Shown here: piece after piece, positions 52,262 through 64,000 of the stretch | Numbering within the stretch: position 1 is the first letter of the stretch | Layout of the letters: each line of letters begins with the position of its first letter | NCBI GenBank assembly: GCA_041659685.1 | Contig: JBAZXV010000003.1 | Coordinates: 66,040-130,039 of the forward strand | Direction: 5' to 3' | Origin: Parcubacteria group bacterium | Lineage (GTDB): Bacteria > Patescibacteriota > Minisyncoccia > Moranbacterales > UBA11712 | DNA length: 64,000 nt | Position numbers and translations under genes: made by a program | The notes under the pieces: model-generated | The model's input: the letters and a program-made list of their open reading frames with translations, nothing else | What the model was told of the DNA's origin: nothing | The model's database searches: none

Positions 52262-52425
52262 TCTAAAGCACGGCGACATTTGCCCTAAAAAAAGGGCGTG
52301 TGCCCGAAAAACAATTCCATCTCAGTTTTCATTTTCAATAATTTTGAAGCTGTCCGACGGATAATGCGACATTTCAGGGCGCAATTGATATTTTCTTGAC
52401 AGTGAATGATGATAATAATAATGAA

Positions 52426-52512
52426 GAGCCTTAAGAAGCTCTGGTTTCGCCGCCTCGGCTGCCTGTGGGGGAGTTGGCTGGGCGCAAAAACCAAAATTTC
52501 TTCTTAAGGCTC
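52426..52512. repeat. 13-bp perfect inverted repeat (GAGCCTTAAGAAG / CTTCTTAAGGCTC) flanking a 61-nt GC-rich spacer
   Basis: Read from the sequence. Lies in the 446-nt intergenic region upstream of lgt. Confidence 0.5.
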
Positions 52513-52707
52513 GTATGGTGGGGCCAGGCTATGGAAGTTACCCCCGTTCCCCCCTAGCTTACTATCCATCAGCCGCTCGGCCGAAATTAAGCGTTTCTTG
52601 GCCCCGTGTACAATTGTTATACAATGCAAGCAATTATAAATTTCTTTTCTTTTTACGATAATATATGAATGCTAGAAGCCGGTCGTTTTATGGAGTATAC
52701 TTGACTC

Positions 52708-53532
52708 ATGGCATATTTTTGGCAGCATATTCCCGAACACCTCAATCCGGTTGCTTTCCTGGCCGGGCCGGTCCAAATTTCCTGGTACGGAATAATGTAC
52801 GCAGTCGCGTTTACTATCGTTTATTATTTGGTTCGCTACCGGATCCGAACGGAAAAATTATCCGTTTCCTTTGAGACTGTCCAGGATTTTTTTCCATGGG
52901 CAATCCTGGGAATGCTTTTGGGAGCGAGACTGGGGGATGTTTTTATTTATGATTGGAGTTATTTCTCTTCGCGCCCCCTCAATATTTTTCTCCCCTTTGA
53001 CGCATACGATCATTGGCAGTATATCGGGATTTACGGGATGTCCTATTTCGGAGGATTAATCGGTCTTGTTATAACTTTTTACTTTTTTTGCAGAATAAAA
53101 AGAATCAGTCTGCTGGAGTTTAGTGATTTATTCGCACCCGGCATCCCCCTTGCTTTCACTTTCGGCCGGCTGGGAAACTTCATCAACGGCGAACTTTGGG
53201 GACGCGCAACGACAAAATTTTGGGGAATGTATTTTCCAGCCGACTTCACCGGCGAACTCCGTCACCCGTCGCAGATTTACGAAGCGCTCCTGGAAGGATT
53301 ATTGCTTTTCTTTATTTTGTGGCCGCTCCGAAAAAAAAGATTTCAATCGGGATATCTTACCGCTTTCTATTTGACAGGTTATTCTGCCGCCCGCTTCACC
53401 ACCGAGTTTTTCCGCCAGCCTGACAATGACTGGTTCATCGGCCCGTTGACGATCGGCCAAATATTTTCCCTGCTGCTTCTTCTCGGAGCAGGCGTTATCC
53501 TGGTTTTGAAATATCATGGCAAGAGAAAATGA
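52708..53532 (+). CDS. lgt: Prolipoprotein diacylglyceryl transferase
   Basis: Lgt signature FTFGRLGNFINGELWGR. 274 aa. Multi-transmembrane. Confidence 0.9.
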   Translation: MAYFWQHIPEHLNPVAFLAGPVQISWYGIMYAVAFTIVYYLVRYRIRTEKLSVSFETVQDFFPWAILGMLLGARLGDVFIYDWSYFSSRPLNIFLPFDAYDHWQYIGIYGMSYFGGLIGLVITFYFFCRIKRISLLEFSDLFAPGIPLAFTFGRLGNFINGELWGRATTKFWGMYFPADFTGELRHPSQIYEALLEGLLLFFILWPLRKKRFQSGYLTAFYLTGYSAARFTTEFFRQPDNDWFIGPLTIGQIFSLLLLLGAGVILVLKYHGKRK

Positions 53533-60700: not shown

Positions 60701-60952
60701 GCCCAACAGCAATATTATTACTATTACTACTTATATTCCCCCGCCTACAGCAGACAGGTGCAGCCATTTTCAATTATTGAAACGGCTTCCGCCGCCGAAA
60801 ATAACGAAGACACTCATCCGAGAGTTCTGGGCGCATGGACCAATCGCAAATCCGCCCTTCCTCTCACCTATTGGTTAATCGCAGCCCTTTCGTATTCTTA
60901 TCTCTTAAACAGCTTTCTTTTCCCTAAGAAAAAAACAAAACAACATACATGA
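57743..60952 (+). CDS. Giant acidic surface protein with three novel ~75-aa repeats, two DUF11-like domains, a poly-Tyr tract and a C-terminal sorting-signal-like anchor
   Basis: N-terminal signal or transmembrane segment. Asp/Glu-rich region with 120-nt tandem DNA repeats. Three repeats ...STGSNSI.G..GAA.I.TGSA.A.SNI.NFVNTSIIG.NWFFAT.N.FG.W. DUF11-like segments GENLHYSVEIENEGKASASNVYV and GEKIKYTIYVSNSGDGDLHKV. Terminal LPLTYW, then a hydrophobic stretch and KKKTKQHT. The alternative start is the ATG at 57779. Confidence 0.7.
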   Translation: MKIISGKNKVIKMNLIRFFIACLLTLGLIFNNIALPISVEIAMAQSDSGQETDTKENIDNQESKNANGGEESGKVDGPSSAQESKDTQKEDGQDDPIWKSCDFSKKENKLIKKNKGKECRKKDSCKKIKECLSDFISIKNEADIKNDSNSSANTGENIISPDEDSAGIDYPIEETATEENPKEKNESEDVTEINPESGNEDESGDNISPQNEPPGEPSGINDPDPEISGGEGKEAFEDTAKNGIDPNSQKEASDSASTDQAVLKDEASEEKDNISINSDQITENENNPLDKKTAQSVPTVTEENDQEIGTSATDNEKSAPVDKEINSPEEEDENIESIPAVTEENDSETETSASAEKSDAENEDMPNSIETDDAAAENSVYNEINTNVVGENVEKFEQNITGMYSGDINLLDEFTNLLSSADTADSNGLTAAQIAIENTAETENSLESSATTGGNSIEGEDSRAAIETGDAISAANIVNFINVNLIGENWLFATINVFGDWVGDLIVPGEGLLNVPEASAQSNENISIENDATIINTADANASTGSNTISGDNGTAAIETGSAASSSVIKNVVNTTIIKNSWFFLTINNMGSWIGKAIHWGEDNNEEIYSYDFNEDESWEANLTNWFSSIFIKNSANIENSAVASASTGSNSIKGNYGAANIQTGSAYAASNIYNFVNTSIIGNNWFFATVNIFGTWKGNVNFAYPDLSVSINDGKGSANRGENLHYSVEIENEGKASASNVYVRISLPDCLSTSGNPNTGDKNGSGNEISWNLSGLGAGEKKSFSIDAAVPENISPDESKIRTYAQVLTETKETELDNNTSADDTLINPSVEDNNEISPPEIITLNDNPNKIQGSQVNDPQTNDPQAQYSLSIRREINNKKAKPGEKIKYTIYVSNSGDGDLHKVKVEDNLKNKDGDLGSYAWDIGNLGKGKTAKVTYGLLIGADAPKGDYKSSAVATGFDPNESEVKSSEAKVSFHMESVKLAAAQQQYYYYYYLYSPAYSRQVQPFSIIETASAAENNEDTHPRVLGAWTNRKSALPLTYWLIAALSYSYLLNSFLFPKKKTKQHT
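58631..58870 (+). repeat. Two tandem ~120-nt near-repeats inside the acidic region of the giant gene
   Basis: ggtgaccgaggaaaatgaccaggaaataggaacatcggcaac aligns with cagtgaccgaggaaaatgattcggaaacagaaacatcggcatc. Both encode (V/I)P(T/A)VTEEND...TSA. Confidence 0.6.
59051..59857 (+). repeat. Three protein-level ~75-aa repeats (Asn/Gly/Ala-rich, ending NWFFAT.N.FG.W)
   Basis: Repeat starts at ~59051, ~59327 and ~59639. Aligned by eye. Confidence 0.55.
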
Positions 60953-61155
60953 AAAAAAGGGGACTTATAAGAAAATTCGTATTCCCTCTTACTGCAACGA
61001 TTCTCATAGTTTGGTTTTGGAATGTTAACCGCGGAGAAGAAGGATACTATTGGTTTTTGGGACTTGTCTTTTCGATTCTGCTTCTGCATTATCTGTTTCT
61101 GTCCGTTCGGTATATCAGAAAGCGCTTAAATTCCGGCCAGAGAACCCCTTTTTAA
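60949..61155 (+). CDS. Small two-transmembrane membrane protein (hypothetical)
   Basis: 68 aa. Overlaps the giant-gene stop by 4 nt. Confidence 0.3.
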   Translation: MKKRGLIRKFVFPLTATILIVWFWNVNRGEEGYYWFLGLVFSILLLHYLFLSVRYIRKRLNSGQRTPF

Positions 61156-61289
61156 GCCATATTTAAGGTTGCCGGTAAATTCAGGCCCTCGAATAAAAAT
61201 TGACAGCTAGAAATAACCTAATATAATAAATGCACCGAGGCAAAGACATTATAAACTTCGGAAAATCCTGCGGATGACCAAGGAGGAAG

Positions 61290-61800
61290 TCATGGACTAA
61301 GATTGTTTGATTTGTCTGGTGATTCCCTGTGCGCCCTGTCACAGACGGGCCGCACAAGCCATGAGCGCTGTTTCACTCATGAGTTCTACTCTACGGGGTA
61401 GCTGCTATGGGAACAAGGAGCCGTCTTAGCCATGAGCGCAAACGAAGGCTTCCGAATCTGCCGACGACTCTTTTAAAGAGAACTCGCGGAGAAGCCAAAT
61501 TCGTAGCGCACTGGCCGCGCCCCGGCAAACATGCCTCTTGAGGCAATGCCTTTCCGAACAGGAATAAATTCGAAAATTGAATAGTTCGAAAAGGCTCAGC
61601 CTGGTGCAGAGAGCGTCTGCCAAGTCGCAAAAGCGAGGGGCAAGCAATCGCCAACTGTGACTCCTATGATTCAGGCGATTCGGGCACTGGTCGGGATTGA
61701 TTTTGAAGGGAGAATCCCGGCAAAGAATATCCCTTCTAAGGAGGGTGGCGGCCATTTTGGCGCGCCACCTTTTTCACTTCTCCGGCCGGTTAAAGAATAA
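61290..61800. other. ORF-free, GC-elevated (~50-57%) block: candidate structured non-coding RNA of unknown class
   Basis: No ORF longer than ~100 aa on either strand across 61156-61871. Duplicated 12-mer AGCCATGAGCGC at ~61361 and ~61430. Local hairpins catgag...ctcatg and cgggatt...aatcccg. Confidence 0.25.
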
Positions 61801-61871
61801 AAATTATTAAACTCTCTGAGATCGATTTCCGGCTGATTCTTCCTAGGCGCAAGAAAATGACAGAAAAAAAT

Positions 61872-64000
61872 ATGAGTATCAAACAAAGAAGCTTTTACTG
61901 GATTCTGGCGCAAGGAATCGCAATTATGCTTTTGGTTTACTCGACAAGCTTCATCAGTTTCGCCCTCTTTCATTCCGTCTCCGAAATAGCGTCTATTGTC
62001 ATCTCCTTTGGAATATTCATTGTTGCCTGGAACTTTCAGAAATTCCGGGGAAACAATTTCGTCCTGATTATCGGAGTCTCTTACTTTTTCGTGGCCGCCC
62101 TAGATCTCCTTCATACTCTTTCTTTCAGCGGATTGTCTCTCTTTCAAAATGACTCGAACCTGCCGACCCAGCTCTGGATAGCGGCAAGATACATGGAAAG
62201 CCTCTCATTTATTGCGGCTTTCTTTTTTTTAAAGAGAAAAAAGATGCTTCGCGGAGATTCAGTTTTTCTTCTTTTCCTCGTTATTTCACTCGCGATCACG
62301 CTGTTTGTTTTTTACTGGAGAGTATTTCCTGACGCATTTATCGAGGGATCCGGTCTTACGGAATTTAAAATATCAAGCGAATACCTGATTTCGTTCTTCT
62401 TTTTGGTTTCATTCGGATTGCTTTATTCCAACCGCCGGCTGTTCGATCCCAGATTTGCGCAGTTCCTTATGCTTTCGCTCTCGGTAAAAATTGCGTCGGA
62501 AGTGTTTTTTTCCCATTATGCCAGTGTAACCGACCTTTCAATGCTGATGGGTCACCTTCTTAAGGTTTTATCCTTCTTTCTTCTCTATAAGGCCATTATT
62601 GAAATAGCACTGATTGATCCTTATAATGTTTTATTCCGTGATTTGAAACAATCGGAACAAAAGTACCGGGACTTGGTTGACAACTCATTGGTCGGAATCT
62701 ATAGAGCCGACCTCGAAGGAAATTACCTGTACGTTAATGAAGCCATGGCCGAAATGTTCGAGTTTGAAACGCCCGAAGCTATGATTCGCGAGGGCGGAAA
62801 AATGCGTTACGAAAAGGAAAGCGATAGAATGATTTTCCATGACCGACTCCAAAAAGAAGGGAGAATCGCCAACTACGAACTTGCGGGAAAAACCAAAACC
62901 GGCAAAAAAATAAACATCCTGTCCAATGCAATGATTGCCGGCAACGAAAGATCCGGGATGATTCTCAACATTACCCTCCGAAAAAAGCTTGAGAATTTAC
63001 TACAGAAAAACATCAGGGAACAGCAAATCATAATTGACTCGGTATCCGCAATGATATTTTTCAAAGACCGGGAAAACCGCCTGATCCGGGTAAATAAAGC
63101 GTTTGAAAAAACTATGGGAGTGCCGAAGAAAAGGCTAGAAGGACTATCCCTCAGCGAAATATATCCGGCATACCAGGCGGAGGCATTCCAAAAAAGTGAC
63201 CTCGAAGTTATTAAATCCGGAAAAGAAAAATTAGGAATAATCGAATATATGGATACATCAGTCGGCACCAGGCTGGTCCAAACAGATAAGGTCCCCTATT
63301 TTGACGAATCGGGAGAGATTGCAGGCATTATCGGTTTTTCAATCGACATTACCGAAAACAAAAAGGCCGAAGAAGCGCTTAGGGAAAGCGAAGCCAAATA
63401 TCGCCAGCTGTTTTCGAGCATGGCCAGTGGAGTTGCCTACCACGAAATAAAATATGACCGGAAAGGAAATCCGGTTGACTACGTATTTATCGAAGCCAAT
63501 GAATCCTATGAAAAAATGACCGGACTTAAAAGAGAAGAATTAATCGGAAAAAGCGCGCTGGACATCATTCCGAAAATGAAAGAGTACCCTTTTGACTGGA
63601 TCGGCGCTTATGGAAAAGTAGGCTGCGGAGGAGAGCCGCTCCGATTTGACCGATACTCTAATTTTCTCAAAAGATGGATATCAATATCCGTCTACAGCCC
63701 TAAAAAAAATTTTGTTATCTCTGTTTTCGAAGATGTGCATGAACGAAGAAAAGCGGAAGACGCGAAAGATGAGTTTCTTTCTCTGGCTTCCCATCAACTG
63801 AAAACACCGCTTTCAAGCATCGGCTTGTCCTCCGAACTTCTTCTCAGAGGAGTTTCCGGAAAACTTGAAAACGAACAGAGAGAATATCTTGAGGACATCA
63901 ATAAATCCGTAAAAAGGATGACTCTTCTTGTTAACAATCTTCTCGATGTTTCACGCCTTGACATAGGCAGTTTTGAATTCAAAAGAAGCCCTCTCAATTT
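61872..64000 (+). CDS. Sensor histidine kinase, 3'-truncated at the window end: N-terminal MASE-type (MASE3-like) membrane domain, three PAS domains and HisKA
   Basis: ATG at 61872 with an open frame to the window end, which is why it is missing from the ORF track. Six to seven transmembrane helices with HSVSEIASIVISFGIFIVAW. PAS-like segments. H-box LASHQLKTPLSSI. Confidence 0.8.
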   Translation, partial: MSIKQRSFYWILAQGIAIMLLVYSTSFISFALFHSVSEIASIVISFGIFIVAWNFQKFRGNNFVLIIGVSYFFVAALDLLHTLSFSGLSLFQNDSNLPTQLWIAARYMESLSFIAAFFFLKRKKMLRGDSVFLLFLVISLAITLFVFYWRVFPDAFIEGSGLTEFKISSEYLISFFFLVSFGLLYSNRRLFDPRFAQFLMLSLSVKIASEVFFSHYASVTDLSMLMGHLLKVLSFFLLYKAIIEIALIDPYNVLFRDLKQSEQKYRDLVDNSLVGIYRADLEGNYLYVNEAMAEMFEFETPEAMIREGGKMRYEKESDRMIFHDRLQKEGRIANYELAGKTKTGKKINILSNAMIAGNERSGMILNITLRKKLENLLQKNIREQQIIIDSVSAMIFFKDRENRLIRVNKAFEKTMGVPKKRLEGLSLSEIYPAYQAEAFQKSDLEVIKSGKEKLGIIEYMDTSVGTRLVQTDKVPYFDESGEIAGIIGFSIDITENKKAEEALRESEAKYRQLFSSMASGVAYHEIKYDRKGNPVDYVFIEANESYEKMTGLKREELIGKSALDIIPKMKEYPFDWIGAYGKVGCGGEPLRFDRYSNFLKRWISISVYSPKKNFVISVFEDVHERRKAEDAKDEFLSLASHQLKTPLSSIGLSSELLLRGVSGKLENEQREYLEDINKSVKRMTLLVNNLLDVSRLDIGSFEFKRSPLN

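Follow-up and report, generated by a model that had tools for sequence, protein, structure and literature searches.

A predicted structured RNA with a conserved ribosome-binding site, encoded next to a MASE3-PAS sensor histidine kinase in a few Parcubacteria-like genomes

A stretch of 64,000 nucleotides from a Parcubacteria group bacterium (assembly GCA_041659685.1, contig JBAZXV010000003.1, positions 66,040 to 130,039; hereafter the window, in whose numbering all positions are given) contains, at positions 61156-61871, a block that is predicted to be a real, discrete and separately transcribed structured-RNA gene on the + strand. The reading favoured here, to which a probability of roughly 0.5 is given, is that positions 61200-61774 (+) are a stand-alone gene for a structured non-coding RNA (ncRNA) of about 540 nt, that this RNA represents a new and rare family of the candidate phyla radiation (CPR) inherited with a MASE3-PAS kinase, and that it acts as a regulatory RNA on which ribosomes dock. 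The initial annotation, made from the letters alone, had put forward two readings, a structured ncRNA of an unusual or novel kind and a decayed gene, of which the first is supported by a promoter and a terminator on one strand, by the lack of any Rfam, tmRNA or protein match and by equivalent units at seven other loci. The promoter-terminator pair, the conserved ribosome-binding site with its mini-ORF (a very short open reading frame, ORF) and the linkage to the kinase were absent from that annotation.

The block is flanked on its 5' side by a 68-aa ORF (60949-61155), which comes after a 1069-aa DUF11/CARDB surface protein, and on its 3' side by the kinase gene, which starts at 61857. It is free of credible ORFs, as had been stated: short ORFs alone are found on both strands, and a Pfam search with six of them, from both strands, gave no hit. 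The longest one (109 aa, minus strand) gave a single marginal hit (E=4e-4) in a HMMER search of 1.8 billion representative proteins. The remark that gaps above 300 nt are few in this genome is roughly right, about eight gaps of at least 300 nt being present in the 64 kb on a crude ORF map. The block as a whole has a G+C content of 48.2%, and the predicted transcript one of 51.9%; the latter lies at the 96th percentile among 540-nt windows of the 64 kb, and the window mean is 44.7%. The G+C elevation described initially is therefore real, but its size was overstated (about 50-57% against a background of about 42%, instead of 44.7%), and the richest 200-nt window of the block reaches at most 54%. 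Furthermore, G+C content alone, which had been taken as a signature of ncRNA, is not diagnostic, because about 20 other stretches of the window, mostly coding, are equally rich (at least 50%). The duplicated 12-mer AGCCATGAGCGC is genuine, with copies at 61357 and 61428, where about 0.015 such repeats are expected by chance in 716 nt (own arithmetic).

The transcription unit is delimited by a sigma-70-type promoter and an intrinsic terminator (Table 1). Transcription is predicted to start near 61234-61236 and to give a + strand RNA of about 540 nt (approximately 61235-61774). In the terminator region, the 45-50 nt that precede the U run fold at -21.1 kcal/mol, a small 5-bp hairpin included. 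Compared with dinucleotide shuffles, the + strand is more stably folded than expected, with z=-5.5 for 61234-61780 and z=-3.8 for 61229-61785. Two further observations concern the ends of this unit. A second AAGGAGG (61738-61744) lies immediately against the terminator's 5' arm (AAGGAGG-GUGGCGGCC...); no conserved start codon follows it, and no counterpart was seen among the homologues. The gene also lies between the two copies of a perfect 11-nt direct repeat, GAATAAAAATT, located just before the -35 box (61191-61201) and just after the terminator (61795-61805); this repeat could be due to chance in AT-rich flanks or be the trace of an insertion, and no such repeat was found by eye around the RNA of locus L001, described below.

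Related loci were sought by means of the kinase protein, and eight are available in all, window included, which represent seven distinct lineages at most. The kinase orthologues are 48-54% identical (63-67% over the MASE3 domain alone for loci L001, L008 and L009) and, at each of the seven other loci, the kinase gene is preceded by an ORF-free gap of 460-1370 nt in which an equivalent RNA unit lies directly upstream of the kinase. Indeed (i) a perfect TTGACA -35 box is present at the equivalent place in all seven, together with a reasonable -10 box, (ii) the folded ORF-free blocks measure 290-650 nt and have a G+C content of 46-54%, the + strand z-scores of all eight RNAs ranging from -2.4 to -5.7, (iii) a G+C-rich terminator hairpin followed by a T run closes the unit in all seven (-12.6 to -25.3 kcal/mol in 45-nt windows), and (iv) the distance from the terminator to the kinase start is 74-87 nt at all loci.

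The genes upstream of the RNA differ from one locus to another: lgt in L001 (a metagenome-assembled genome of the Parcubacteria group) and L024, a divergent 129-aa response regulator with a 340-aa kinase in L008, L010, L027 and L028, three tRNA genes in L009, and surface-protein genes in the window. In the window, lgt (52708-53532) is separated from the RNA by about 7.6 kb of genes for hypothetical and DUF11/CARDB surface proteins, and the RNA thus stayed with the kinase and not with lgt; this 7.6-kb stretch resembles an insertion that did not disrupt the RNA-kinase pair. The RNA unit is absent upstream of the more distant MASE3 kinases of L025, L026, L029/L030 and L033, and also at L031, a contig of Moranbacteria in which the response-regulator pair occurs without a MASE3 kinase. 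Since the unit follows the kinase across differing upstream genes and is lacking in these controls, the RNA-kinase pair behaves like a module of two genes. The response regulator was rejected as the true partner, because the regulator/HK342 pair occurs without the RNA.

The family is predicted to be rare and confined to a few uncultivated Parcubacteria/Moranbacteria-like (CPR) genomes, a taxonomic range that rests on L001 (Parcubacteria group) and on the sources of the neighbouring response regulators (Candidatus Moranbacteria). A metagenome scan with the pattern AAGTTGRTNGN{0,8}TCGTGCNNTCCTG returned 13 stretches, 12 of which were chance matches and one a duplicate of L001; two scans of viral contigs gave chance hits only and no further members; and a protein search with a MASE3 profile brought no further members of the clade, the score dropping from 444 to 350 bits. 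A look-up of the window's own kinase protein gave no record.

The persistence of this architecture bears on the possibility that the block is non-functional DNA, either a decayed gene, as the initial annotation allowed, or a fast-evolving spacer with the promoter region of the kinase. The very low conservation between subgroups and the length range of 290-650 nt would suit such an origin. On the other side, no protein similarity covering the block was found in any frame, whether by Pfam searches on the ORFs, by HMMER with the longest ORF or by frame comparison. The promoter, the ribosome-binding site with its start codon, the terminator and the constant spacing to the kinase persist at eight loci of compact genomes, with G+C content and fold stability above background at every one of them. 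A spacer would not, moreover, retain a perfect -35 box and a strong terminator aimed at the gene that it serves. This explanation is accordingly regarded as highly improbable. A pseudogene or a small protein was also rejected as a candidate, given the absence of protein signal in Pfam, in the exhaustive HMMER search with the longest ORF and in a three-frame comparison, which revealed no frame or peptide conserved beyond the mini-ORF among the eight RNAs.

Searches for known RNAs were likewise negative. Rfam 15 gave no match at E<=1 within the block and no gathering-level hit in the whole window; the sole match between 60500 and 62500 falls outside the block, inside the kinase gene (a snoRNA model at 61952-62009, 19.5 bits against a threshold of 42). 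Among the homologues, no Rfam match was obtained in the relevant span of L001 (E<=5) or in the RNA regions of six more loci (E<=0.1). ARAGORN predicted neither tRNA nor tmRNA in the 64-kb window, which therefore carries no tRNA gene by this program; nor does the RNA pass as a tmRNA. Landmarks of tmRNA, RNase P, signal recognition particle (SRP) RNA and 6S RNA could not be matched by eye in the initial annotation. As far as these searches can tell, the predicted RNA belongs to no described RNA family that could be tested.

A housekeeping RNA (RNase P RNA, tmRNA, 6S or SRP RNA) that has diverged beyond the reach of the Rfam models, or an antisense small RNA acting in trans on the kinase initiation region, would nevertheless need to be considered. 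The window string GGAGGAAGUCAUGG superficially resembles the P4 strand of RNase P (GAGGAAAGUCC), and the RNA contains CUCC-type stretches. The likeness to RNase P, prompted by the string GGAGGAAGUC, was rejected, since the string is not conserved in the homologues and no covariance model gave a hit; none of these families is hit even at E<=1 and ARAGORN is negative; and linkage to one accessory kinase together with absence from most relatives that carry the regulator misfits an essential RNA. An antisense action on the initiation region of the kinase mRNA was rejected because duplex energies of cognate pairs equal those of non-cognate ones (means of -27.4 and -26.8 kcal/mol, respectively; standard deviation 5.9). 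These explanations are considered extremely improbable. A sponge of the CsrB/RsmZ type was rejected too: apart from the single Shine-Dalgarno (SD) sequence no k-mer is strongly enriched, AGGA occurring 29 times over the eight RNAs against 19 expected.

The feature shared by all members is a translation initiation site. In each of the eight RNAs, GGAGG is followed after 3-10 nt by AUG (GUG in L024), which opens an ORF of 2-16 codons. The distance between the RNA's 5' end and the ribosome-binding site is 25-200 nt; counted from the predicted 5' end, AAGGAGG is at 25-100 nt in seven of the eight RNAs. AGGAGG is enriched over the eight RNAs (z=7.5), and shuffled sequences yield the combination of SD, start codon and mini-ORF at 0.06-0.19 per RNA, the product over the eight RNAs being 5e-8. 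On the sequences compared, this combination is the only universally conserved element of the RNA. It stands out against its genomic background, in which SD-led initiation appears to be used very little: among the 37 ORFs of at least 200 aa in the window, none has GGAGG upstream and six have a 4-nt SD core within 20 nt of the first ATG, and the initiation regions of the kinase genes themselves are weak or have no SD. A perfect SD in a non-coding RNA is a marked feature precisely because the host genome barely uses SDs.

The encoded peptides fall into short ones, MD in the window and in L024, MG in L009 and MAMG in L001, and longer ones, MQFPGLFPG in L027, MGLFPDSPSEN in L010, MGLFPDATCEI in L028 and MLFPGVIMFPGVLFPG in L008. 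The RNA could on this account be the mRNA of a small F-P-G/D peptide (9-16 residues; L008, L027, L010 and L028) with a long structured 3' untranslated region (UTR), the versions of 2-4 codons, that of the window included, being decayed. The initiation site is indeed canonical and strong, and FPG/FPD is in frame with the start codon in four members and repeated in frame in L008 and L027. Yet half of the members, among them the window, encode MD, MD, MG or MAMG and still retain promoter, SD, start codon, folded body and terminator; conservation is seen for no other peptide; and the UUCCCNGG repeats also form hairpins, so that an explanation at the RNA level is sufficient. A peptide product is for these reasons judged very unlikely. 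Since the initiation site is conserved and the ORF is too short to serve as a product in half of the members, ribosome occupancy would be the relevant event, and the RNA is probably a ribosome-engaging regulatory RNA.

The RNA also looks modular, as illustrated by two members. Three SD sites occur in L027 (1818-2435): AUA, in place of AUG, comes after the first, MQFPGLFPG is encoded after the second, and an 81-codon frame for which no gene was called starts after the third; in L008 (960-1365) there is an internal duplication (AAGUUGGUAGGUCGUGC against AAGUUAGUCGGUGUCUGC). Recombination within the module is suggested by the fact that the relations among RNA subgroups differ from those of the kinase MASE3 domain.

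The predicted fold places this initiation site in a structured domain (Table 1). A 5' hairpin occurs at the equivalent place in most homologues, and in the apical stem of P1 in L008 and L027 the pairing is, by eye, maintained where U-A is replaced by C-G and G-C by G-U. Stem P4, which closes the P3/P4 domain in the window, has a pair probability of 0.98 in the window, 0.98 in L001 and 0.85 in L009 (each whole RNA computed separately); one of its columns reads A-U, U-A, G-C or C-G depending on the homologue, and its central pair flips from G-C to C-G in L010/L028. The corresponding values for stem P3 are 0.64 in the window, 0.94 in L024, 0.84 in L009 and 0.40 in L027, and its U-A/U-A pairs become C-G/G-C in L010/L028. 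When the core was aligned by hand in seven members, bulges being removed, 92.9% of the cells of this curated core were paired and 8 of 18 pairs showed double changes; the covariation score was 0.479, compared with 0.252 for shuffles (0/500) and at most 0.14 for slid controls. The initial annotation had named a lack of covariation and of expression as refuting, and the point on covariation is partly answered: covariation is seen, but in a hand-made alignment of seven sequences. A tentative stem P2 would join the start-codon region to GUCUgGUG/UCCACG/CUCGUG; it was chosen by RNAalifold for L001 and L009, and the AUG to GUG change of L024 is matched by a U to C change in its proposed partner. In such a model, P2 and P4 would form a pseudoknot holding the start and stop codons.

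Outside this core, short motifs recur. CGGCA(A/G)A is found near the 3' end of seven of the eight RNAs. The 12-mer duplication is specific to the window and not conserved in homologues; in the minimum free energy (MFE) structure, CCAUGA of its second copy pairs with the start-codon region, and the two copies can, in this model, compete for the same partners.

Table 1. Predicted features of the RNA gene and of the adjoining kinase gene, in window coordinates (MFE, minimum free energy structure).
Feature	Position	Strand	Remarks
Sigma-70-type promoter, TTGACA-16 nt-TATAAT	61200..61227	+	12/12 consensus; no other 12/12 site in 60800-62200
5'-terminal hairpin P1 (CCGAGG ... CUUCGG)	61235..61261	+	in MFE structures
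Shine-Dalgarno AAGGAGG, perfect	61280..61286	+	sole 7-mer common to 7/8 RNAs; AGGAGG in 8/8
Mini-ORF AUG GAC UAA (Met-Asp-stop)	61292..61300	+	begins 5 nt after the SD
P4, 5' strand CUAAGAU, contains the stop codon	61297..61303	+	pairs with 61423-61429
P3, 5' strand UUCCC, in motif GUGnnnnCCCUG	61323..61327	+	pairs with GGGAA 61409-61413
12-mer AGCCAUGAGCGC, copy 1	61357..61368	+	5' arm of a local hairpin with CUCAUG (MFE)
P3, 3' strand, in motif UAUGGGAACAAGG	61409..61414	+	13-mer common to L001; GGGAAC also in L009, L027
P4, 3' strand GUCUUAG (61423-61429), overlapping 12-mer copy 2 (61428-61439)	61423..61439	+
Motif GCGGAGAAGCC	61486..61496	+	common to L024 (17-nt block, 88% identical)
C-rich segment complementary to the terminator 5' arm, candidate antiterminator strand	61512..61526	+	inverted repeat I3, 83% complementary
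3' hairpin CGGGAUU ... AAUCCCG, then CGGCAAA	61692..61724	+	MFE
Intrinsic terminator GGUGGCGGCC-AUUUU-GGCGCGCCACC, then UUUUU	61744..61774	+	hairpin 61744-61769, G+C-rich
MASE3-PAS-HisKA sensor histidine kinase	61857..64000	+	runs off the window end; MASE3 E=4e-75

The main rival is a cis-acting leader, that is, a ribosome-mediated attenuator of the leader-peptide or start-stop type, in which the strong promoter upstream would give rise to a long leader, occupancy of the mini-ORF would decide between the terminator and the C-rich antiterminator and read-through would transcribe the kinase. At all eight loci, promoter, SD with short ORF, structured RNA, intrinsic terminator and gene follow each other in the right order on the kinase strand, which is also the arrangement of the trp/his/phe leaders, of tnaC and of the erm/cat leaders. 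In L010/L028 a C-rich segment just after the mini-ORF is the rank-1 partner of the terminator 5' arm (-23.3 and -25.4 kcal/mol), a strong antiterminator candidate, and RNAalifold picked this pairing. A comparable, though different, segment exists in the window (61512-61526), where it is the best of all upstream windows against the terminator 5' arm (-19.9 kcal/mol). In addition, no sigma-70-like promoter was found in the window between the terminator and the kinase start, and an in-frame F-P-G/D motif is kept by the mini-ORFs of four members.

Several features speak against such a leader. The mini-ORF has just 2-4 codons in four members, too few to respond to an amino acid or to a nascent peptide; with MD, MD, MG and MAMG, these members show neither the regulatory codons nor the arrest peptide of a leader-peptide attenuator. 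The terminator is 200-480 nt away from the mini-ORF. No antiterminator common to all members emerges: complementarity of motif C (GUGC..CCUG) to the terminator 5' arm is not kept in L009, L008 and L024 (ranks 0.15-0.5), where no candidate is clear, and a universal antiterminator formed by this motif was rejected, as it holds in L010/L028 only. The terminators are uniformly strong. Finally, the kinase has its own promoter, a well conserved extended -10 element (TGnTATAAA) between terminator and kinase at five of the eight loci and TACAAT at two more, so that it is predicted to be at least partly transcribed on its own, which favours a stand-alone RNA over a simple leader. An attenuator of the kinase is thus considered possible, if unlikely.

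The stand-alone ribosome-docking RNA meets difficulties of its own. Primary sequence is barely conserved, to the point that an nhmmer profile of one subgroup misses the others and that the window and L001 share just the 13-mer UAUGGGAACARGG (E=1.6). MAFFT, MAFFT with RNAalifold and nhmmer all failed to align the subgroups with each other; short blocks link pairs of members, and the evidence for homology across subgroups is consequently synteny, a common architecture and short motifs. The covariation signal comes from a hand-built alignment of seven sequences, two pairs of which are near-duplicates in the aligned blocks, and folding does not favour P3/P4 in L010/L028. Since P2 competes with P4, its thermodynamic probability in nested folding is about 0, and it is retained only as a tentative stem of a pseudoknot. 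The first SD of L027 precedes AUA, not AUG. The association with the kinase is partly an ascertainment effect, since seven of the eight loci were found through the kinase, and complementarity between the RNA and the translation initiation region of the kinase is no better for cognate than for non-cognate pairs.

Under this reading of a ribosome-docking RNA, a 30S or 70S ribosome would dock on the unusually strong initiation site without translating the body of the RNA, because the mini-ORF ends almost at once. The docked ribosome could protect the 5' end of the RNA, as it does in SD-type 5' stabilisers, and, since the stop codon sits in P4, docking would open P4 and remodel the downstream P3/P4 fold. 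The RNA might in this way report ribosome availability or the status of initiation, and the output would most probably concern the adjacent kinase module, speculatively through terminator read-through into the kinase or in trans. A broader proposal is that such RNAs form a new class, in which a folded RNA with a strong initiation site and an abortive ORF of 2-16 codons captures ribosomes in a genome that otherwise hardly uses SDs, opens a pseudoknot-like start/stop domain and signals translational status to the MASE3 kinase module; this proposal is considered improbable.

By analogy, the working of the element would be closest to that of an SD-type 5' stabiliser joined to a start-stop or mini-ORF, and its parts are those of a leader-peptide attenuator. 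In Bacillus subtilis, a ribosome bound at a strong SD blocks 5'-to-3' decay, as in the hbs mRNA, which is protected from RNase J1 (PMC5737220), and STAB-SD of the Bacillus thuringiensis cryIIIA gene is another SD-type 5' stabiliser (cited in PMC3997798). In common with these, the RNA has a perfect SD near its 5' end, beside a 5' hairpin, and a presumed role in holding a ribosome and not in making protein; judged from its sequence, it possesses the strong 5'-proximal SD not serving a long ORF that is one mark of a STAB-SD-like element. It differs in having a start codon and an almost immediate stop after the SD, and in that the SD belongs to a stand-alone terminated RNA, within the conserved helix P4, whereas theirs lies in the leader of a long ORF. 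Functional start-stop sites are found in Escherichia coli, where they are thought to act via ribosome occupancy (bioRxiv 10.1101/520783). Start-stops (the yecJ and hslR internal start-stops in E. coli; the AUG-stop of plant NIP5;1) share with the RNA a functional initiation site followed by an (almost) immediate stop, but are located inside genes or in the 5' UTR of a regulated ORF, whereas here the site belongs to a separate structured RNA conserved across genomes and its ORF of 2-16 codons is not strictly a start-stop.

Other large or regulatory RNAs are less close. OLE, GOLLD, ROOL and raiA resemble the RNA in large size (here 290-650 nt), G+C content above background, own promoter and terminator and restricted range, and the fixed gene neighbour is comparable to that of OLE with oapA. 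They are distinguished from it by the absence of any sequence or structure match (Rfam negative) and, on the side of the RNA described here, by far fewer conserved nucleotides, a variable and apparently modular body and a ribosome-binding site. RNAs linked to two-component systems (RsmY/Z and CsrB with GacS/A or BarA/UvrY; Qrr with LuxO) share the genetic association of an ncRNA with a two-component module, but the present RNA has no enriched GGA-type repeats, has a constitutive-looking consensus sigma-70 promoter and is unrelated in size and architecture. With tmRNA it shares the character of a stable structured RNA with a short ORF flanked by a pseudoknot-like fold; it lacks, however, a tRNA-like domain (ARAGORN negative), ends in an intrinsic terminator and has the SD and start codon that tmRNA lacks.

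The neighbourhood of the RNA furnished several additional observations. The stand-alone 129-aa response regulator beside the RNA is 78-82% conserved among L008, L010, L027 and L028, and about 90 proteins among the matches listed are at least 70% identical to it, several of them named Candidatus Moranbacteria. In L031 (4501-5918), the pair formed by this regulator and the 340-aa kinase is found without the RNA/MASE3 module, beside tRNA and type IV pilus genes. Downstream of the MASE3 kinase, L024, L027 and L028 have a gene for an OmpR-type response regulator, on the opposite strand, and one for an ECF-type sigma-70 factor, which suggests a larger conserved signalling cluster around the RNA at these three loci (the window ends within the kinase). 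The gene that follows the RNA-less, distant MASE3 kinase of L025 (3505-3780) has 23S_rRNA_IVP/bAvd domains, an accessory protein type found in diversity-generating retroelements. In the window itself, a second ORF-free candidate RNA (52396-52620, +) is located upstream of lgt, with a promoter (TTGACA-17 nt-TAATAAT), a closing helix of 13 bp without mismatch (GAGCCUUAAGAAG ... CUUCUUAAGGCUC) and a tail rich in G/C; it gave no Rfam hit at E<=1.

In summary, very few regulatory RNAs have been described for CPR/Parcubacteria, which have not been cultivated and whose very small genomes leave little space for DNA without function. That an RNA gene of 300-650 nt has stayed beside a single sensor kinase despite several genomic rearrangements suggests that a two-component signalling module here includes an RNA. 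Should the gene prove to be an attenuator instead, it would be an unusual one, with a 2-codon leader ORF controlling a kinase. If ribosome docking holds true, the RNA would be a natural, conserved bacterial element of the start-stop type that acts from a stand-alone RNA.

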